Below are positions 6,806 through 59,558 of a stretch of DNA of 64,000 nucleotides, piece after piece (the first letter of the stretch is position 1; the number at the start of each line of letters is the position of its first letter). Under the pieces are notes generated by a model. That model did no database searches, was not told the DNA's origin, and saw only the letters and a program-made list of their open reading frames with translations. Made by a program: the position numbers and the translations under genes. The DNA is from Escherichia phage AidaStucki_Bas93: sequence record PQ850593.1. One strand, written 5' to 3'.

Positions 6806-6829
6806 CCCTGCCTTCGGGCGGGGTTTTTT
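6806..6829 (+). terminator. rho-independent terminator after capsid gene
   Basis: CCCTGCC-TTCG-GGCGGGG hairpin followed by TTTTTT. Confidence 0.75.
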
Positions 6830-6855
6830 CGTTTTAAGACCTATACAAGCCAGCG

Positions 6856-6868
6856 TGTAATGTATATT
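6856..6868 (+). promoter_or_regulatory. candidate phage promoter motif GTAATGTATATTC
   Basis: TAATGTATA core about 35 nt upstream of the 6900 start codon; same core recurs upstream of other genes. Confidence 0.4.
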
Positions 6869-7661: not shown

Positions 7662-10220
7662 ATGATCGTTTATAATAACCAAGCACCTGATGCAGTGAAT
7701 AACGTTGGGCAGTTTGGTGCTACTGAAGGCTCTATCGGAGCTTACAAGCAAGCGGCAGAATATGCAGCTGATTCTAAGTATTGGTCACTGTTGGCAGAGG
7801 CTAAGTTTGGTACAGTTGATGACTTGATTGCTCAGGTTGAGATTCTATACAAACAAGGTGTTCTATTAAGAGAAGATATTGAAGACTTAAAACAAGACTT
7901 CATTGCACAAGATGCTCGTTTGATGAACCTCATTGCTCAAACTAACGCAGCTGTAGCTGATGCAAATAATGCAGTTGCTCTGATTAATCAGAAACTTGTA
8001 GAAGTTCAGAATCAACTCGACGTTCTGTTGGGAATGTCTGTTGACGTAACTACACTTCCTCCGGGAACTCCGGCTACTGGCTCTTTTAATCCGAACACTG
8101 GTGTAATCTCTCTGGGTATCCCAGAAGGTGATCCCGGAAAGGATGGTTCTGTTACTGACCTATCTGCTGCTCCTACCGGTACACCGGAGCTGGGGGACAT
8201 CGGTTTCTATGTTGACAAAGATGATAACATTGTTCACAAAACAACTCTCGAAGATATTGCAAACCTGATCCCATCTGTTCGTTCTGTTTCAGTTAACGAT
8301 GGCCCTGCGCTTGATGGTGAAGTTGCTCTTACACTCAACAAAGAGACGGTAGGTCTTGGGAACGTTTTGAACGTGGCTCAGTACAGCCGCCAAGAGATTA
8401 ATGATAAGTTTGACAAAACAACTAAAACCTACCAATCGAAAGCCGAAGCTGATGCGGATGCTCAATACCGACAGGTAGGAGAAAAGGTTTTGGTGTGGGA
8501 CTCAACGAAGTATGAATTCTATACTGTTGCAGCGAATAAAACCCTTACTCCGGTTAAAACAGAAGGTCGTATCCTAACTGTTAACTCCCGTGCTCCTGAT
8601 TCAACTGGTAACATCGATATCGTAATCCCAACAGGAAACCCATCTTTGTATTTAGGGGAGATGGTAATGTTCCCTTATGACCCAGCTAAAGCTGTCTCCT
8701 ATCCGGGCATTCTTCCTGCGGACGGTCGTTTGGTGTCAAAAGAATCTGCTTTGGATTTAGGCCCATCCCTTATCAGTGGACAACTCCCTGTTGTTTCTGA
8801 AACAGAGTGGCAAGCTGGTGCTAAGCAGTATTTCTCTTGGGGTAAATTAGCCGATGGCATCACTGATGCAGATTCTACTAACTATATCAATATCCGTCTT
8901 CCTGATTGGACAGGCGGTGAGGCTATTCGATCCCCTGATTCTGTAAAAGATAGTGCATATAAAGGTAATGTTCAAAGTCAGGTCCCTTATGTAGTCACTG
9001 TAAATAACCAAGCTCCTGATGAGATTACAGGTAACGTCAATATCTCCAGATCTATCTTAGGTGCTGCTGCTGCTGGTGCAAACTCTGATATAACATCTCT
9101 CGCAGGGCTTACAACAGCGCTTTCTGTCACTCAGGGTGGAACAGGTGCAAAGAATTCCAATGATGCTAAGGTAAATTTAGATTTAGACAGAATAGAGCAA
9201 GGTTCTGGAGAGACTAAGATCCTATCTCCAAATAAAGAAACCTACATGTTTGTTGATAATGACGGGTGGGGTTGTTACCGTACCACGGCTGGGTTGGTCG
9301 GTACTGTAGCTTTGTCAGTTGAGAGAGGGGGCACTGGAGCAACAGATGTTGCTAGTGCAAGAGATAATCTAGGACTTAAATCTCTTTCTACATTAGATAT
9401 TGTTCCAGTAACAAAAGGTGGTACAGGTGCTAGTGATGCTGCCGGTGCAAGGTTTAATTTGGGGTTGGGAAATGTTTCTACTCTGGACAACGTACCAATC
9501 GCTAGTGGTGGTACAGGTGCTAGTGATGCTGCCGGTGCCCGAAGCAACCTCGGAGCGCTGAGTAACACTCCAGCAAACACAGGTGCAGGTAATACTGGTG
9601 CGCGAGTCCAACATGCCACCGGAAGAGGTCTGTTTACTTTAGACATGTTTAACTGCTACTGGTATATGCAGCCAGAGGATACTAACTTCTGGGTTGCCCA
9701 CGGTGTGTCATATGCAGGGCCTAATGGCGAAGCCTCAGAGTATGGTCGTATATCTTACGCAATAAAGATTGCAGATGGAACAACAAAATATGTCCATTGT
9801 CTTACAAACAAAAACACCATCATTGATACAGGCGGATTTATCAAAGCGGCATCTCCGGTAGTTAACATTTATGCCAACGGTCGGTATGAAACGAACGATG
9901 AGTCTGAGGGGGTTAGTGTCATCCGGCAGGGTATTGGTGAATATCTGATTACCGGTTGCCTCGGTCTTAACTCTGATGCAAGATGGGGTGGGGTGGATGG
10001 GGGGTTTGAAATCCCAACAGATCGCAACAAGCAACCTAGGATTTGGCTGGACTATGAGGTTAAAGAAGATGGTTCTATTTTAGTTAAAACCTATCACAGA
10101 ACTCACCCAACCTCTCCAGTTTTTGCTAGAAACGAGATAGAAGGTTTTTCTGATGGGGACCCTATTGATATTCCAAGTGATGCTTTTATCTCAGTTCGTG
10201 TAGAGATGCCAGCTGAGTAA
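7662..10220 (+). CDS. tail fibre/spike protein with GGTGA-type fibre repeats
   Basis: 852 aa; repeated GGTGA(T/S)D..ARxNLGL segments characteristic of phage tail-fibre repeats. Confidence 0.65.
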   Translation: MIVYNNQAPDAVNNVGQFGATEGSIGAYKQAAEYAADSKYWSLLAEAKFGTVDDLIAQVEILYKQGVLLREDIEDLKQDFIAQDARLMNLIAQTNAAVADANNAVALINQKLVEVQNQLDVLLGMSVDVTTLPPGTPATGSFNPNTGVISLGIPEGDPGKDGSVTDLSAAPTGTPELGDIGFYVDKDDNIVHKTTLEDIANLIPSVRSVSVNDGPALDGEVALTLNKETVGLGNVLNVAQYSRQEINDKFDKTTKTYQSKAEADADAQYRQVGEKVLVWDSTKYEFYTVAANKTLTPVKTEGRILTVNSRAPDSTGNIDIVIPTGNPSLYLGEMVMFPYDPAKAVSYPGILPADGRLVSKESALDLGPSLISGQLPVVSETEWQAGAKQYFSWGKLADGITDADSTNYINIRLPDWTGGEAIRSPDSVKDSAYKGNVQSQVPYVVTVNNQAPDEITGNVNISRSILGAAAAGANSDITSLAGLTTALSVTQGGTGAKNSNDAKVNLDLDRIEQGSGETKILSPNKETYMFVDNDGWGCYRTTAGLVGTVALSVERGGTGATDVASARDNLGLKSLSTLDIVPVTKGGTGASDAAGARFNLGLGNVSTLDNVPIASGGTGASDAAGARSNLGALSNTPANTGAGNTGARVQHATGRGLFTLDMFNCYWYMQPEDTNFWVAHGVSYAGPNGEASEYGRISYAIKIADGTTKYVHCLTNKNTIIDTGGFIKAASPVVNIYANGRYETNDESEGVSVIRQGIGEYLITGCLGLNSDARWGGVDGGFEIPTDRNKQPRIWLDYEVKEDGSILVKTYHRTHPTSPVFARNEIEGFSDGDPIDIPSDAFISVRVEMPAE
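9418..9538 (+). repeat. exact 32-bp direct repeat (two copies, 89 bp apart) inside the tail fibre gene
   Basis: ggtggtacaggtgctagtgatgctgccggtgc at 9418-9449 and 9507-9538. Confidence 0.8.
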
Positions 10221-22266: not shown

Positions 22267-23922
22267 ATGCAACAGACAACTTACGCTCAGGTCAGAAGTC
22301 GTGACCCGAGAAATACTTTCTATGGTGTTAATCCGGGAGCGGCTTCGGCCTCTCCTTATATGGCTAGACCTATTCAGACAGCAGATGTTTCTATGTACCG
22401 ACGTCCTTCTGTACCTCCATCTCTCGCAGGTCTTATCTCTCAGGCAGAAGAAGATCAGAATGCTATGGTGAATCCGGGATTCCAGCAACGTCTTATGGAA
22501 CAACAGAATCGAGGAACCCCAACAAGTCTTCAGGGTATTGATATTGGAGCACCAGCCCCTGTAGCAGCTAATCCTAATTTATCCACTGATCAGGGTTTAC
22601 AAGATGCTGGACTTATGCCTAGCGACCCTCTTCCGGTAACGCCTCCTACTAAACCGCTAGAAGATGGCCCTATGGAGTTTACTCCTTCTCAAGTGGAACA
22701 GGCACAAGGTGTTGTTACTACTCTTGCTCAAGGTCAGGACACTGGAGACGGAATGGCTGGGGCTACTCGTATTAAAGATCAGGAACGTGTTAATAATGAT
22801 ATCATGCAAATTGCTAAAGCTAAAGACCCTTCCGAAGCTTGGAATAAACTACAGAAAGAACCTTTCTATCAGAATTCCAGTTTCTATACAGGTTTGATGG
22901 GTGTAGGTCTTTCTATCATGTCAGGTAAATCTCCTATCGAAGCATTCCAAATTGGTCAGGGAATGGCTAATCAAGATGAGACTAAGAAGCAACTAGAAGC
23001 TAACCGTGATGCTCTGATTGAACAAGGTTTCTCTCAAGATTCAATTGCAGCTGCTATTGCTAACGGAGATCCATCTCTTCTGAAGATGAAAGCTGTAGAC
23101 CCTGCTCAGAAAGAAGCGTTGTATGCTGCTCGTGAAGAACGACAGAATGCTGAATGGGACAGACGTCAACAGATTCAAGAGCAGACTATGCGTGAGCGTG
23201 CTGAGGAAACTCGTCGTGCCGCTGAAGAAAGGGCTAATATGAACTTTGAACGTCAGAAAGAGTTGATTGGATATCGTGATCAAGTTAAGGCTGAACGTGC
23301 CGAACAAGCTGCTCAGAGTTTTAACTTTAACCCGAAAGAAGTTCGTCTTGCTCAGAATACAGCTGAAGGTACGGTTGCTAAGCAGTGGGCAGAGAAAGGT
23401 GGCCTGTTTAACCAGTCTAACAAAGACTTGGATTTGGCTGACAAAGCAGTTAAAGATAAAGATTATCAGACAGCTCGTTCTGCTTACATGCAGGCTATTA
23501 TGAACTCCGCAAGGGCTGAAATCGGTGCTACTCGTTCTCTTACCGAAGAAGACTTGGGGCACTTTGCAGAAGACCCATCAATCTTCATTCGTGTTGGCAA
23601 CAAGTTTGCACTGAAATCTGGATGGCGTCCTACTGATTCTGCTCTTGCTTATGCTCGTAAGCAAGCTAACGTTGGTCACACCTCTGCAATGAAAGGTGTT
23701 GCTGATGCTAAGAGAGCTACGATTGAAGCTTACATCGGTTCTGGTATGGATAAGAAGAGAGCTACTGCATTGGTTAACCGTGCAATCCCTTCTGGCGGTT
23801 TCTATGATCCTCTCGGTGTTTTCTCTGAGGAAGCAGAAGAGGCAGTTGGTGGTGCAGCAACCAATCCTAAACTGAATGGTGCTTTATCAGCTGTTGAAGA
23901 CACTAGCTGGTTCACTGAGTAA
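22267..23922 (+). CDS. hypothetical virion protein
   Basis: 551-aa ORF with a charged coiled-coil region. Confidence 0.4.
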   Translation: MQQTTYAQVRSRDPRNTFYGVNPGAASASPYMARPIQTADVSMYRRPSVPPSLAGLISQAEEDQNAMVNPGFQQRLMEQQNRGTPTSLQGIDIGAPAPVAANPNLSTDQGLQDAGLMPSDPLPVTPPTKPLEDGPMEFTPSQVEQAQGVVTTLAQGQDTGDGMAGATRIKDQERVNNDIMQIAKAKDPSEAWNKLQKEPFYQNSSFYTGLMGVGLSIMSGKSPIEAFQIGQGMANQDETKKQLEANRDALIEQGFSQDSIAAAIANGDPSLLKMKAVDPAQKEALYAAREERQNAEWDRRQQIQEQTMRERAEETRRAAEERANMNFERQKELIGYRDQVKAERAEQAAQSFNFNPKEVRLAQNTAEGTVAKQWAEKGGLFNQSNKDLDLADKAVKDKDYQTARSAYMQAIMNSARAEIGATRSLTEEDLGHFAEDPSIFIRVGNKFALKSGWRPTDSALAYARKQANVGHTSAMKGVADAKRATIEAYIGSGMDKKRATALVNRAIPSGGFYDPLGVFSEEAEEAVGGAATNPKLNGALSAVEDTSWFTE

Positions 23923-23940
23923 GACCTAAGTCCTGCCTTC

Positions 23941-23955
23941 CATAATGTATATAGG
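23941..23955 (+). promoter_or_regulatory. candidate phage promoter motif CATAATGTATATAGG
   Basis: TAATGTATA core about 40 nt upstream of the ATG at 23990. Confidence 0.4.
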
Positions 23956-30938: not shown

Positions 30939-32222
<1,284 letters not shown>

Positions 32223-32470
32223 AATGCATCTCTTTATAAATAGTTTCCGTGTTCTTCTTCCAGTTAGATAAACCGGTAAGAACCCTCTGAGCAACTTCAT
32301 CAGCTGCCTTACTTCTTTCAATCTCTAACTCTTGTTGATGCTTTTCTTTATCCAGATTGTTACTATCTGTTCTGTACTCATTAAACTTCATTCCGCCAAA
32401 GAACACCAGAGCAGAGAAGATAACAAATCCTAGATTATCACTTAAAGTGCTTTGCATATTGACCCCAACG

Positions 32471-32492
32471 AAAAAAGCCACCCGAAGGTGGC
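32471..32492 (-). terminator. rho-independent terminator after SSB gene
   Basis: minus-strand GCCACC-TTCG-GGTGGC hairpin followed by TTTTTT. Confidence 0.6.
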
Positions 32493-32514
32493 TAAGCTAT
32501 AACAAGGAGAGTTA

Positions 32515-33261
32515 TCAGAAAGGCGAATCGTTATCGTCTTCATAAGTAGAAGCAGGTTCTTTATCAATCGTAGGGATCGAAGGGGTAGCTTCTTTCTGTT
32601 CTGTTTCAGAAGCACGAGTAATTTCACGACCAGCCAGAGGTATGTTCTTAGCGTCATTAGCTTGAGTAAGCAGGTTGCGCTGGAACGGGAACATCAGTTG
32701 ATAAGATGCTACGTTCTCATCGGTTTCAGCATACGGTTCGAAGAATACCAGAGGACTACGAGCTTCACCAACTGCTGCACGATATTTGGTTGGGATTGGA
32801 GAAATGGTTTTGATGGAGTTTTTAACTTCACCAGCTTTGTTAGTGTAGGAGTTAACCAGAATGTTAACAGGCTGACCTAACAGCACATCCTTAAACCAAG
32901 ACAGATCACCTTTCAGTGCTTGAATGCTTGGGTCAATCATCTTGCAAAGATCAAGGATACCAGAGTTCTTAGCTCGTGGGTTTACATCATAACTCTTGAA
33001 CTGGCAAGCAGGACGTGGTTCTAATGCCTTACCATCGGAATCTTTACCCGTAGCATCAACACCAATCAGCTCGAAAGCCAAATCCATACGGAAAGCTGGA
33101 TTCTTAGGAGTTACTGCTTTGGTCTTCGGGTCAATCCAAGGGTCGCGATTGTGAACACCCAAACCTACTACACGAACAATACGTGCTTCGTATTCACCAT
33201 CAGGGATTACATCGTAGTTAGATTTACGGGAAGAAGTTGCGATAGTTGGAATCATGCTCAT
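32515..33261 (-). CDS. single-stranded DNA-binding protein (T7 gp2.5-like)
   Basis: acidic C-terminal tail ending ...YEDDNDSPF, the hallmark C-terminal Phe of gp2.5-type SSBs. Confidence 0.6.
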   Translation of the reverse strand: MSMIPTIATSSRKSNYDVIPDGEYEARIVRVVGLGVHNRDPWIDPKTKAVTPKNPAFRMDLAFELIGVDATGKDSDGKALEPRPACQFKSYDVNPRAKNSGILDLCKMIDPSIQALKGDLSWFKDVLLGQPVNILVNSYTNKAGEVKNSIKTISPIPTKYRAAVGEARSPLVFFEPYAETDENVASYQLMFPFQRNLLTQANDAKNIPLAGREITRASETEQKEATPSIPTIDKEPASTYEDDNDSPF

Positions 33262-33681
33262 TGTTAATTTCCTTATTTAATTTGAAAGATTGTTGCTCTC
33301 TTTGAGCGGTTATGTATAATATACATTACGCTTATACCGATAAGAGTACTATATAATATAAGTATCTTTGGTAGTAGATATAACACACTAGTAATGTATA
33401 TATTGTATAGCTGATAAAGTTATTGCAGGCTTGTACATTGGGCAATTCATAGAATCCCTTGCAAGTACCGAAGGGCAGGAGCCACCTGCGAGATAAAAAT
33501 AGAGAATTAAGGAATCCTTGATTTAGGTTGTAGGGACTCCTAGGGACTTTGATTCTCTATTTAAAAGAATAAATAATTACTATATCTAATACTAAACAGA
33601 CTGAAACAAAGATAAGAAACTTCTTATAAATACTCATTACTTATCATCTAAATAGTTAACTAATCTCTGATATAAAGAAGT
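33262..33681. promoter_or_regulatory. 420-bp AT-rich non-coding region with promoter-like motifs on both strands
   Basis: TAATGTATA cores at about 33310-33328 (minus sense, upstream of SSB) and 33390-33405 (plus sense); direct repeat tagggact x2. Confidence 0.4.
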
Positions 33682-33870
33682 TTAAATCAAGCATCCATCA
33701 CAAACATAGTCTCCACTAAGAGACTCTTGTAACAAACGATTTTGTTCCTCTGAATATAGAGAATTTACTAATTCTTTTAACTCTGAAAGAGTGATGAAAT
33801 CAATAGTATTTCCATTATCTAAAATAGAAGAGTTAAGTAAATATTCATTGTCTTTAATTTTATTAATCAT
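33682..33870 (-). CDS. hypothetical protein
   Basis: 62-aa ORF. Confidence 0.35.
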   Translation of the reverse strand: MINKIKDNEYLLNSSILDNGNTIDFITLSELKELVNSLYSEEQNRLLQESLSGDYVCDGCLI

Positions 33871-34037
33871 TCTTCATTTCCTTTTACTTCAGCGTAGACT
33901 TTGATAATGCCCTTAAGAACTTCCTTAGAAGCAATAGCACTTTCTTCAGAGGTGTGAATAGTAGAAAACTCTTTCTTTCCAATCTTGTAAGTGTGAACCC
34001 AAATCATACTTATTCCTCGTATTCCCAATTTCTTTCA
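33867..34037 (-). CDS. hypothetical small protein (56 aa)
   Basis: hand-translated; stop overlaps the next start (ATGA). Confidence 0.25.
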
Positions 34038-34167
34038 TAATATCCAGAGTTATAATTTAGAGCGCATCTCTCAGCCTCCTCTATGTCATCAGTGTTTAGG
34101 ATATTTACCCACCCACCAACTTCATCAAAACCTTCTTCTACTTCATTAAACCATACGCTATACTTTT

Positions 34168-34560
34168 TCATCGAATCACCAAAGGCTCTTCAGAGTACAC
34201 AGGAGCGGCTATTTCTACAGGAGGTGCTGCCCTAAGGTCATTAAGTCTTACGCCCTTCAGCATTCCATCTAGGTGGTCCTTTTTGGGTATTCCAACAGGG
34301 AAGTCGTCAATCCAGATATCTACAAAGAAACCTAACTGGCGACATACGTCATCTTTCTGAACACCATTGCAAAAGATGATAGGAATCTGCAAACGCTCTG
34401 CATCAATCTTAATGTCGTGATTATCATACCCATTAGGCTCTGCAAAGCGGTAAGTTACAAAACGTACATCATAACCTTTGGCTTGCATTAATGCCACCAC
34501 AGATCGCCACAGCTCTTTATCTGAGGTGTAAGTATCATCGTAATCTAAACCAATATTCAT
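34168..34560 (-). CDS. HAD-like phosphatase (possible 5'-nucleotidase)
   Basis: N-terminal GLDYDDT (DxDxT) and downstream DD motif. Confidence 0.45.
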   Translation of the reverse strand: MNIGLDYDDTYTSDKELWRSVVALMQAKGYDVRFVTYRFAEPNGYDNHDIKIDAERLQIPIIFCNGVQKDDVCRQLGFFVDIWIDDFPVGIPKKDHLDGMLKGVRLNDLRAAPPVEIAAPVYSEEPLVIR

Positions 34561-34798
34561 GTTGAATCCTTTTAGACAAGAAAAGCCGCCCTAAGGCAGC
34601 TTCTTATTTAACTATTCACTTTAGCTTCAAGTGTTTCATTTTCAATACTCAAGTCAATCACTACGCCAGTAAGCTCAACGACTGCTTGGCGAAGGGCGTC
34701 TTTACCCATAGAATGTACTTGAGATAAGAAGAAAGCTTTACCTTCTTCCGTGGATAGGGTTTCTTTTAATTCAGAAGCAGTCATTGATATTCCTTATT

Positions 34799-35160: not shown

Positions 35161-35654
35161 TTAGTGTGTATGCATCCAATTTAACCCAATCTGACAATCA
35201 GAAGCCAGAGGACATTCCATGTTCAAGTACTCACCAGCCTTCTTAACACAAAGCTCGGTGTACTCTTTGAGTTTCTGTACATCATTACGGTTCACTGAGA
35301 ACTGGCCCTCATCGTGCATATCAATTACCTTAGCACAACGAACTCCATCTTTCTCAATCCACTTGTTAAGGAACATCATAGCATATTTCATAACAACAGC
35401 ACCAGCACATTGCAGGAGTGTGTTAAGGGCTTTATGAACCATAACCTTACCAGTGGCATCCCGTCTCATTGTAATCTTACGACCATCAACGCCAATCAAA
35501 TACCCTTGAGCAGCTTTCTCTGTCATACGATCAATGAGGATTGCAATACATGGGTTCTCTGCCAAGAAGCGTGCTCGCATCACTGAACCTTCGTCAGCTC
35601 CACCACCTACGATTGAACCAAGTTTAGCATCACCAGCACCATAGTTAAACGCAT
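35161..35654 (-). CDS. DNA polymerase (family A, T7 gp5-like), exon 2
   Basis: frame reads ...YGAGDAKLGSIVGG ... ALNTLLQCAG ... VIDMHDEGQF, matching motif B end through motif C; the frame is open upstream of the track's GTG start. Confidence 0.75.
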
Positions 35655-36360
35655 CTCATATATTCGACAAGAGCCGCAACACTCTCGCCCGTTCTCTTAT
35701 GAACTGCTACATGTCGCCATGTAGGATAGACTATATCATCACCCTCTATCGAGGGGTTGGGCGCTTCCACCGGCATTAGCTTCCGGCGTACTCCTTTCGG
35801 ATAGTCGTTGCACCTTCAAGTATTCTATAGCTGTTTCTAATCGGCTAACATCATCTTTCAATAGCCCTAAAGCTCTGTTGCAGTTGTGACACAACAGACC
35901 GCGTATTACTCCGGATTCATGGCAATGATCAACCACAAGTTTAATTCTGTGATGTGTTGCCATTACAAACCCTTCGCCCTTACAGATAGCACACTTCCCA
36001 TCCTGATCAGCGTACATCTTTTCGTAATCGCTGGCTGTGATTCCATAAATTCGTTTGAAGTAGGAATTTCTCCAGCCCCTATCTTTGCATTCATCAGAGC
36101 AATAATGTTCAGATGGTGCATTTGGTTGAAAATCTTTTGAGCAATTACGACAAGGTTTTGGATTGAACCGACCTTGAGGGTATTTACTTGCCTCAGCAGT
36201 CTGTTCTTCTTTAGTTTTAGTTACAGTTGTATATTCCATAAGCACCTCCATGTTGAGTTGCTATAGAATACTTGCTTGGCTCAGGATTGTCTACTAGAGA
36301 GTTTCCCTGAGTTCACCCAATTTAATCGACGAGATTACTCTCGAAGTATCCATTTACGTC
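35655..36360 (-). mobile_element. putative group I intron in the DNA polymerase gene
   Basis: 706 nt between exon 1 ending on a U (first base of the in-frame TGA) and exon 2 beginning after a G; joining gives RDNAKTFI-Y-AFNYGAGD, a continuous motif B. Confidence 0.55.
35739..36251 (-). CDS. intron-encoded HNH homing endonuclease
   Basis: 170 aa with HNH/Endo-VII-like CAICKG ... DHCHESG ... CHNCN motif, located inside the polymerase interruption. Confidence 0.7.
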   Translation of the reverse strand: MEVLMEYTTVTKTKEEQTAEASKYPQGRFNPKPCRNCSKDFQPNAPSEHYCSDECKDRGWRNSYFKRIYGITASDYEKMYADQDGKCAICKGEGFVMATHHRIKLVVDHCHESGVIRGLLCHNCNRALGLLKDDVSRLETAIEYLKVQRLSERSTPEANAGGSAQPLDRG

Positions 36361-37711
36361 AGATAAACGTTTTAGCGTTGTCACGAGTAGGAAGACCAGC
36401 AAGTTTCTGGTTGTGGGAGTGGATATCACCTTCAAGAAGGATATCACGATACATAATAGCAGAAGCTAAACCACGTTCTGCCAGAGCTTTCTTAGCTGGA
36501 TTATTCTCTTCGATTGCTTCAGCAAGCATATCCCTACACTCTTTAATGAGGTAGTGAGCGAGCATACGAAGTTCAAGTCCAGAACCATCATACCCTAAGA
36601 ATACTTCTTTACCAGCGGGTATGTAATATTTGTAAGCACCTACAGGCTTATCTTTCTTCCCCGGCTTACCTTTCTCGTAAATTACGTTAGTACCTTTTCG
36701 TATATAACAACCATCAGGAACAACGTTAGTAATAACGAAAGGACGAGAGTGATCACTGTCTGAATTATAGTCAGACTCAAACAAACTGCGACACTCATGA
36801 CCAAACAAACCACGAGAGGGAATATTAACCACGATACGATGTTTGAATCGAAAAGTTGGCGTAGCGCAGCTGTTAGCTTCTGCCGAAAGTTTACCATCTT
36901 CGCGTTCCTTTGCTATGAGTCCACTGATAAGACCTAGCCTGTGAGCCGCTACAACGCGCCTCTTAAGCAAACTTCCAACACTCCCTAGCTCGCCCCCTAA
37001 CCCTTCTTCAAGAGTCTCCTCGAGGTTTGTAGGAGCTGTAGGCCACTTGTTTGAGGTAGCTAGTGCTATCTTAATCTCATCAAACGTGATAGGTCTACGT
37101 CGGTTAGGGTTTAAACCTAAACCAAACACATAAGCCTTCATATAGTTCTTAGTCTTAAACCTAAAATGCTTCTCTAAGAACCTCCTAATATCTGCGTCAA
37201 CCATCTCGGCTGTCTGCTTCTGTTTAGCATTACCTCGCATCCAAGCTGAATACCACGCTTGGTATGTTCCATACTTTCGTATATCTTTCTTGATTTCAAA
37301 AGTATTCCAAGGTTTCTTTGATACGTTAAACTCTGGAGGAAGAAAACCCTCATCCATAAGGGCTTCTTTAACTCGTGCATCTTTCGATGGGTCAAAGTCC
37401 ACGTATTCAACACAGGTGAATGCTCCACCAATGTCTTCTCTCTTAAGGCCAACTCTATCACAATAGGCTTGAGGCCACTTCTGTAAAGCTCCAGACTTCT
37501 TAAATGGCTTCATATAAGTAGAGCCATCTAATCTCATCTTAGGTAAGAGAGGGATCAGTTCTTTGTCGATATTAACAATAATCTCTTTAAGGAGGTGAAC
37601 ATACCACCGAGCATTTCTTCGGTTGAAACTCACTCCGTGCTTCGCTTGCTTAGAGATTATATCAGCGACAGTCATCTCTGTCAAAAATGGGAGAGCGTCC
37701 GGGTTGCTCAC
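36361..37711 (-). CDS. DNA polymerase (family A, T7 gp5-like), exon 1
   Basis: YDGSGLELRMLAHY (motif A) and ...LPTRDNAKTFI (start of motif B); colinear with the T7 gp5 polymerase domain but lacks the N-terminal exonuclease domain. Confidence 0.8.
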
Positions 37712-59456: not shown

Positions 59457-59558
59457 AGAGCTTCTAGCGAGGATGACAGGGTTCGAACCTGCATACTCCA
59501 ATTACTTCTTTAACGACCGCTTAGAAGGCGGGGAAGATACATCCTCGCTAGAAGCTCT
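59457..59558 (-). ncRNA. structured element: 19-bp perfect inverted repeat enclosing a 64-nt loop with tRNA-like T-arm (not a canonical tRNA)
   Basis: AGAGCTTCTAGCGAGGATG (59457-59475) pairs with 59540-59558; loop contains GCAGG-TTCGAAC-CCTGT and CCGC-CTTCTAA-GCGG hairpins; no D-arm could be folded. Confidence 0.35.

Follow-up and report, generated by a model that had tools for sequence, protein, structure and literature searches.

The Intergenic Region Upstream of Gene 40

We analyzed a 420-bp non-coding island at positions 33262-33681 of a 64,000-nt stretch of the genome of Escherichia phage AidaStucki_Bas93 (PQ850593.1; hereafter the window, all positions being counted from its first letter). 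The comparative data suggest that this island harbors two divergent promoters of the phage sigma factor gp36, one of which probably directs the synthesis of a structured non-coding RNA. The genes of the window lie on the plus strand from 1 to 28.3 kb and on the minus strand from 28.5 to 64 kb, and both neighbors of the island follow this layout: the start of gene 40 (32515-33261, minus strand) borders it at 33261, while on the other side gp40.1 (33682-33870, minus strand) ends at 33682. No larger gap without a co-oriented open reading frame (ORF) of at least 40 aa exists in the window, the second largest measuring 300 bp, and the description of the island as the longest non-coding stretch in a first-pass annotation was thus borne out. 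The same annotation called the island AT-rich. This holds overall, with 30% GC against 42.6% in the window, but not uniformly, since a core at 33407-33572 has 39% GC and is flanked by poorer segments at 33262-33406 (26%) and 33573-33681 (22%).

A megablast search with positions 32400-34600 retrieved 98 phage records, every one from Escherichia or Shigella. The closest is Escherichia phage LAMP (99.2% identity), and others include phiEco32, SU10, 172-1 and the BASEL phages Bas86-94. These phages are members of the Gordonclarkvirinae (Kuravirus, Suseptimavirus, Nieuwekanaalvirus), and the source is a Kuravirus, a phiEco32-like podovirus and not a phage of the T7 type with which the island was compared at first pass; middle and late transcription in phiEco32-like phages is carried out by the host core RNA polymerase together with the phage sigma factor gp36. 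We identified gp36 as the ORF at 31318-31962 (minus strand), which matches phrog_1740 (RNA polymerase sigma factor, 1.9e-45) and whose LAMP homolog is annotated as gp36, a putative extracytoplasmic function (ECF) sigma factor. Positions 33264-33581 are homologous to the phiEco32 gene 41/gene 40 intergenic region, with 98% identity across most Kuraviruses. The AT-rich spacer at 33567-33681 (approximately 22% GC) is lineage-specific and falls outside the conserved unit, its place being taken in most Kuraviruses by gene 41 or other sequence. Gene 40 does adjoin the island, as stated in the first-pass annotation, which named it a single-stranded DNA-binding protein (SSB) gene; that label itself has no other basis than the annotation of one GenBank record and the acidic tail of the protein (...EDDNDSPF). 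No function for gp40 was obtained from PHROGs ("unknown function"), Pfam or PDB sequence searches, and a single-sequence AlphaFold model was unusable (predicted local distance difference test score, pLDDT, 36).

A Probable Divergent Pair of gp36 Promoters

Promoters dependent on gp36 have a published single-element consensus, tAATGTAtA, with start sites 6-8 nt downstream (PMC8948821), and have been listed upstream of phiEco32 genes 6, 13, 26, 40, 58 and 68 (PMC4331800; PMC8948821 Table S3). In the 2025 cryogenic electron microscopy (cryo-EM) structure of the P68 open complex with gp79/gp36, AATGTA occupies -14 to -9 (AATG, -14 to -11), and the C-terminal domain of gp36 touches -37G and the T opposite -34A, positions at which mutations abolish transcription (PMC12276001). 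The exact sequence TAATGTATA is found five times in the window against 0.66 copies expected, a number reached in none of 100 shuffles. Four of the copies, at 6858 (+), 23943 (+), 33320-33328 (-) and 38831 (-), are co-oriented with genes and correspond by order and orientation to P13, P26, P40 and P58, as does AAATGTATA at 42837-42845 (-) to P68. The fifth is a plus-strand copy at 33392-33400. The island thus holds exact TAATGTATA elements on both strands, in agreement with the promoter-like cores in both orientations that the first-pass annotation had recorded.

The minus-strand element at 33320-33328, an exact match invariant in relatives, is the published gp36-dependent middle promoter P40 of gene 40, because order, orientation and sequence all agree with the published lists (PMC4331800; PMC8948821 Table S3). 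It is identical in position and sequence to the copy already known in phiEco32. Its -35 region, ATAGTACTCTTATC (33339-33352, minus strand; -39 to -26), resembles the GGTAGT box only weakly. When AATGTA is placed at -14 to -9, as published (PMC12276001), +1 falls at A33313, and the gene 40 mRNA is predicted to have a 5' untranslated region of 52 nt (33262-33313, minus strand). This leader contains a predicted hairpin, GCTCAAAGAGAGC, at 33295-33307, a Shine-Dalgarno sequence, AAGGAAA, within 33268-33278, and a block, AACCGCTCAAAGAGAGCAACAATCT, which is invariant in relatives. Of the 420 bp of the island, P40 explains no more than approximately 70.

The plus-strand copy belongs to a longer arrangement, TTGGTAGTAGATAT-N10-TAATGTATA (33368-33400), composed of a -35 box, TTGGTAGTAGATAT, at 33368-33381 and the exact -10-like element at 33392-33400 (-15 to -7), with +1 predicted at A33407. 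The 14-mer TTGGTAGTAGATAT is present exactly twice in the window, at 33368-33381 (+) and at 42856-42869 (-), and each copy is separated by exactly 10 nt from a gp36 -10 element downstream of it, which for the second copy is that of the P68-like promoter. The same box is found in P68 of phiEco32 itself, between genes 69 and 68, as attggtagtagatat-N10-AAATGTATA. The plus-strand promoter thus shares with phiEco32 P68 the -35 box TTGGTAGTAGATAT, the 10-nt spacer, the -10 core AATGTATA, the G at -37 and the A at -34, with G33370 and A33373 holding the two positions contacted in the cryo-EM structure; both transcripts are also predicted to begin with A and to form a 5' hairpin at once. They differ in the first base of the -10 element, A in P68 but T in the plus-strand promoter, as in P13, P26, P40 and P58. 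Moreover, P68, which is gp36-dependent and activated by gp79 (PMC12276001), faces gene 68 in the direction of the surrounding genes, whereas the putative plus-strand promoter faces the opposite way and would read into a non-coding stretch.

A comparison of 34 related loci, representing 13 promoter haplotypes, shows TGGTAGTA (-38 to -31) to be invariant in 34/34 and the 9-mer TAATGTATA in 33/34, with A at +1 in all; the spacer always measures 10 nt and varies in sequence. Constant boxes separated by a variable spacer of fixed length are a classical promoter signature. In ES17-type phages an insertion of approximately 150 bp is found next to P40, and the plus-strand unit remains intact from the -35 box onward; since the insertion separates the two and the unit is kept, the latter is no by-product of P40. 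The plus-strand promoter points away from gene 40 and against all genes of 28.5-64 kb, and so does not have the co-oriented downstream middle or late gene that is usual for gp36 promoters. We consider it very probably functional on the strength of its sequence features, and the best reading of the region appears to be a back-to-back (divergent) pair of gp36 promoters formed by P40 and the plus-strand promoter. The first-pass proposal of a control region with divergent promoter motifs is thus supported, with published P40 as the minus-strand core and a full P68-type -35/-10 architecture around the plus-strand core.

The insertion of the ES17-type phages (ES17 itself, L019, approximately 480-640; L023, 8750-8915) carries a 47-aa ORF and lies between P40 and the plus-strand -35 box. 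It replaces the ATAGTACTCTTATC stretch and supplies, with the same spacing, CGGTAGTT at P40 -38 to -31, which matches the -35 box of the P68 type better than the original stretch does.

Two -35 classes at fixed spacing can be recognized among the gp36 promoters. The P13-like (6820-6866, +) and P26-like (23905-23951, +) promoters, of late type, have TAAGACCTA-N14-TAATGTATA in common, and the P68-like (42837-42869, -) and plus-strand (33368-33400, +) promoters TTGGTAGTAGATAT-N10-(A/T)AATGTATA; P40 and the P58-like promoter have weaker boxes, ATAGTAC and TTAGCAG, at -39 to -33. These classes might underlie middle versus late timing. The predicted transcript of the P68-like promoter (42800-42830, -) opens at +1 with a hairpin, ACAA-UAAGAGU-UUGU, followed by UAUUUU, and predicted hairpins at or near the 5' end are common to the P68-like, P40 and plus-strand transcripts. 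The P26-like -10 element (23943-23951, +) includes the ATG at 23945 taken by the ORF finder as the start of a 1450-aa ORF, whose true start is presumably an ATG approximately 45 nt downstream, after AAAGGAGA.

The island also contains other promoter-like motifs. The TATAAT hexamers mentioned in the first-pass annotation do exist as exact plus-strand copies at 33315-33320 and 33352-33357, but their significance did not stand: sigma-70-type promoter matches in the region number 4 against 5.3 expected, with no excess over chance, and the hexamers are poorly conserved, that at 33315-33320 reading TATAGT in both phiEco32 and LAMP. Because such matches are at chance level, we gave the hexamers no weight. 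Two plus-strand one-mismatch copies of the gp36 element, TTATGTATA (33310-33318) and TATTGTATA (33401-33409), were rejected as promoters, being unconserved in relatives.

Modules of the Predicted Plus-Strand RNA

The sequence downstream of the plus-strand promoter was examined in an alignment of 23 distinct sequences drawn from isolates, IMG/VR contigs and metagenome contigs. A 5'-terminal hairpin, H1 (ATAGC-TGATAAA-GTTAT, 33407-33423, +), starts at the predicted +1, A33407. Compensatory changes affect two of its six pairs: at the closing pair, 18 sequences have C:G, 3 have U:A and 2 have A:U, and at another pair 2 sequences have G:C in place of U:A. A further pair alternates between G:C (12 sequences) and G.U (11 sequences). 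Neither the covariation score nor the count of double-change cells observed for H1 was reached in any of 500 shuffles, and when the pairing register was slid the paired cells fell to 33-52%.

H1 is followed by H2, a cassette that exists in two forms. The window has type A (33428-33467, +), in which 33429-33435 pairs with 33460-33466 and encloses an apical hairpin whose loop varies (AUA, ACA, UCA) next to a constant stem. Type B, found in 12 of the 98 phage records, is unrelated in sequence to type A and longer by approximately 26 nt. Each type has its own predicted helices, and in type B one pair shows a compensatory change, from U:A to C:G in ECBP2. Next comes H3 (GCAGG-AGCCA-CCTGC, 33475-33489, +), with an invariant stem and, as its sole variation, C/A in the loop (AGMCA). 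A UUGCAGG:CCUGCGA pairing and a GGC/GCC mini-hairpin, the latter seen in single-sequence minimum free energy folds, were considered as alternatives; both were dropped in favor of H3, whose loop accommodates the C/A polymorphism, whereas the mini-hairpin would be disrupted by it.

The last module, H4, is a 66-nt hairpin (33497-33562, +) with arms at 33497-33510 and 33549-33562 and up to 16 pairs, G.U included. Its predicted folding energy is -23.5 kcal/mol on the plus strand (z -3.0) and -18.2 kcal/mol on the minus strand (z -3.2). The tagggact direct repeat seen at first pass is indeed present and lies within H4, as TAGGGACT at 33531-33538 and 33541-33548. Variants of H4 have 2-nt and 1-nt deletions in the predicted apical loop and bulge, and both repeat copies go from GGGA to GGA together. 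A G-quadruplex in H4 was considered and rejected, both GGG tracts being lost together in type-ii variants.

H4 is 93-100% identical to its counterparts in relatives, versus 82-97% for the adjacent gene 40 coding sequence, and even where the identity of the latter drops to 82-86%, that of H3-H4 together stays at 93-100%. In every lineage conservation stops a few bases past H4. H variants, cassette types and H4 variants are combined differently from phage to phage (for example in rybdy3, Paul, MN05 and ECBP2), which indicates that the modules recombine. The family is a narrow one. The RNA unit is absent from three distant relatives defined by their gp40 (68-70% identity; L034-L036, IMG/VR contigs of 82-90 kb). 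These three have a different invariant block, GGAAGCATCTAGCAAAGCTAGCATATCAAAGCTAAGCTAAGCTATATGCTTTATCCAT, approximately 60-130 nt upstream of the gp40 homolog, and a hairpin common to their leaders shows a compensatory change, GTCCA..TGGAC versus GTTCA..TGAAC. Pattern scans of IMG/VR and metagenomes for a wider family returned Kuravirus-type contigs, plus chance matches of 17-28 nt only.

Coding Potential, Strand and 3' End

The plus strand of the unit contains no ORF of at least 22 aa. Searches against Rfam 15 with the region and two cassette-B relatives gave chance-level matches only (E >0.5), a whole-window Rfam scan found nothing relevant to the RNA unit, ARAGORN detected no tRNA or tmRNA in the region, and no similarity to E. 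coli genomes was found. That one of the strands encodes a small protein is highly improbable. Short ORFs do exist (20-21 aa on the plus strand, 20-37 aa on the minus strand), and some GenBank records annotate minus-strand coding sequences in the homologous stretch, such as 4E8 g037c and ES17 gp037. However, no ORF is conserved in frame across relatives, none spans H3-H4, the most conserved part, and those present are interrupted by 1-nt indels and replacement of the whole cassette; their starts are TTG or GTG without a Shine-Dalgarno sequence, and no start codon is conserved.

Of the two strands, the plus strand has the more stable predicted fold in 23/23 sequences, by a mean of 6.7 kcal/mol. 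Nevertheless, fold energy alone does not allow a choice of strand, because the z-scores of the two strands against their own shuffles are similar. Substitutions are more telling. The G:C to G.U change in H1 (11 sequences) and an A:U to G.U change in H4 (XT32) would be C-A mismatches if the minus strand were the RNA, and H2 and H4 contain invariant G.U pairs (two in H4) that are standard pairs on the plus strand only. We assign the RNA to the plus strand because of these G.U-type substitutions and pairs together with the orientation of the promoter, which has H1 at its +1.

With regard to the 3' end, the plus-strand sequence after H4 reads UUUAAAAG, with no U-tract. No plus-strand intrinsic terminator was called in 32800-34200, and only weak ones lie downstream, none of them canonical up to 40 kb. 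On the minus strand an A-tract precedes H4 and UUUUUAU (TTTTTAT) follows it; the terminator scan makes no call there either, because the loop greatly exceeds 8 nt and the stem is AU-rich.

In an alternative scenario, which we regard as unlikely, the structure acts on the minus strand, H4 being a terminator and/or an RNase III-type site that ends the upstream operon (genes 41+ or gp40.1); the plus-strand promoter would then merely serve as an insulator or cause transcriptional interference, its RNA having no function of its own. The tracts flanking H4 are consistent with this, as are its minus-strand fold (-18.2 kcal/mol, z -3.2), its location, which in all relatives is precisely the interval from the upstream gene's stop to P40, and minus-strand folding z-scores as good as those of the plus strand. 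The absence of a terminator call at H4 speaks against it, and so do the G.U pairs together with the changes from G:C and from A:U to G.U, which would all turn into C-A mismatches. Furthermore, the covarying H1 sits at the plus-strand +1, 70-150 nt beyond the would-be terminator, where minus-strand RNA should be rare, and the complete and invariant P68-type promoter is left unexplained. A minus-strand role of H4 is compatible with a bidirectional one and does not exclude it.

A Model for the Locus

We put forward that the plus strand has a functional gp36 promoter from which a discrete, structured non-coding RNA is made, with H4 as a shared end, and we assign to this reading a probability of roughly 0.6 on the basis of sequence comparison. 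P40 would start the gene 40 mRNA at approximately 33313, and the plus-strand promoter would start a non-coding RNA of approximately 156 nt, from A33407 to approximately 33562, organized as H1-H2-H3-H4. Production of this RNA would take place in the middle phase, alongside that of the replication genes. H4, located where the RNA meets the convergent minus-strand operon, would be a bidirectional end signal shared by both: an efficient stop of the upstream operon on the minus strand, making gene 40 dependent on P40, and a weak terminator, or a hairpin that stabilizes or protects the 3' end, on the plus strand. We infer this shared role because the plus strand is without a terminator and H4 on the minus strand is flanked by the A-tract and UUUUUAU. 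The small RNA on the plus strand, offered only as an alternative at first pass, is the reading best backed by the comparative data.

Several points weigh against this proposal. The published lists comprise six promoters, none of them here on the plus strand, and at least one of the published searches covered the direct strand only (PMC4331800). One relative, the metagenome contig L023 (ERZ1034915 NODE-75, approximately 8936-8944), reads TAATATATA, which changes the critical -11G contacted by gp36; it is the sole such case and could represent a real promoter loss or a sequencing error. Folding z-scores are similar on both strands, at -2.4 / -2.2 (plus/minus) in the window and -2.75 / -3.47 in ES17. 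Covariation is limited to H1 and one cassette B pair, and within H1 it amounts to few independent events, approximately 3-4, because the sequences are closely related; the stems of H3 and H4 never vary and are therefore silent for or against pairing. Since no canonical terminator is found, the discrete plus-strand 3' end is itself deduced. Finally, no RNA-seq data or transcription start site map was found in the literature for any Kuravirus.

As to what such an RNA would do, in our judgement it most likely acts through a bound protein or another fixed partner and not by simple antisense pairing, because the primary sequence of H3-H4 is near-invariant and the cassette is swappable. RNA duplex energies calculated against 156 phage translation-initiation regions gave no signal, the best value (-50.3) equaling the best of 30 shuffles. 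A further reading, of low probability, is that of a functional modular non-coding RNA, with an invariant H3-H4 "handle" and an exchangeable A or B cassette, which could be the primer or R-loop RNA of the replication origin of phiEco32-like phages, or else a decoy or regulator binding a protein of the host or of the phage. In the decoy variant the cassette would set specificity, for example against host defence, and in the primer and decoy variants alike synthesis of the RNA would have to await the change to the phage sigma factor.

Transcription-primed origins are known from the T7 primary origin, from T4 ori(uvsY)/ori(34), where a middle promoter is combined with a downstream unwinding element, and from ColE1 RNA II. 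That the locus is an origin of this kind, with the plus-strand RNA serving as R-loop or primer near the AT-rich DNA past H4 and being extended by the Pol I-type polymerase of the phage, is doubtful. Such a function would suit a promoter that fires against the local genes with no ORF to serve, and a primer RNA fits the missing plus-strand terminator. The locus is also part of the replication block, where the putative SSB gene adjoins it and the genes for the DNA polymerase and the 5'-3' exonuclease are close by, and every lineage has very AT-rich DNA just past H4, of sequence unrelated from one lineage to another. As in the T7 and T4 origins, a phage-specific middle-type promoter in a replication region has AT-rich DNA downstream; unlike in these, a conserved, structured segment of 39% GC stands between the promoter and the AT-rich DNA (22% GC), which is not conserved. 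Indeed, what follows the promoter over the first 156 nt is not an unwinding element but the structured segment, which is richer in GC and better conserved than the rest, and conservation ends at H4, which leaves the proposed initiation zone outside it. Beyond one 8-nt pair there are no iterons, and TAGGGACT shows no enrichment in the window. Cumulative GC skew reverses only at the switch in gene orientation at approximately 28.3 kb, with a local blip here; since it follows gene orientation, and thus tracks transcription only, it is uninformative on this matter. No Kuravirus origin was found in the literature. The first-pass proposal of an origin is not supported by these observations.

Among known systems, phage small non-coding RNAs read opposite to their neighboring genes, such as lambda OOP and P22 sar, and the bidirectional terminators between convergent units offer parallels to the favored reading of a plus-strand RNA ending at H4. 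Like OOP and sar, the predicted RNA is a short, structured transcript without an ORF, has its own promoter, converges on a neighboring operon and would end at a shared hairpin. OOP and sar overlap the coding or leader sequence of their targets and have canonical terminators, whereas the predicted RNA overlaps non-coding sequence only, has no U-tract, would depend on a phage-sigma promoter and contains an internal cassette that can be swapped. Neither its sequence nor an Rfam model relates it to a described RNA. Neither the plus-strand promoter nor the RNA was found in the literature searched, which did not include the original promoter-mapping paper. While P40 is known, a seventh gp36 promoter and a candidate phage small non-coding RNA without an Rfam family thus appear to be new.

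PhiEco32 is a model for the reprogramming of host RNA polymerase by gp36 and its co-factor gp79, and its promoter set has so far been taken to consist of six members, all serving protein-coding operons. If our reading is correct, a seventh full-consensus promoter with a conserved non-coding RNA adds an RNA component to the gp36 programme, and the promoter itself would offer a substrate on which the -35 rules derived from cryo-EM could be tested. An unannotated element would also be marked in approximately 100 sequenced coliphages, several of them in phage-therapy collections. Should the RNA prime replication, the origin of this phage group would be located.

Other Features of the Window

The Rfam tRNA model matches 59468-59546 (-) at the gathering threshold (29.7 bits versus 29, E 0.038); ARAGORN finds no tRNA in the whole window. 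An HNH-type ORF of 170 aa (35739-36251, -) lies between two DNA-polymerase ORFs (35161-35583 and 36359-37711), and in LAMP the polymerase is annotated as a joined coding sequence in two pieces. Just within the 5' end of the ORF at 36359-37711, which corresponds to the N-terminal part of the DNA polymerase, we observed a perfect sigma-70 consensus promoter at 37656-37684 (-), TTGACA-17-TATAAT, with an extended -10 TG and 12/12 matches.

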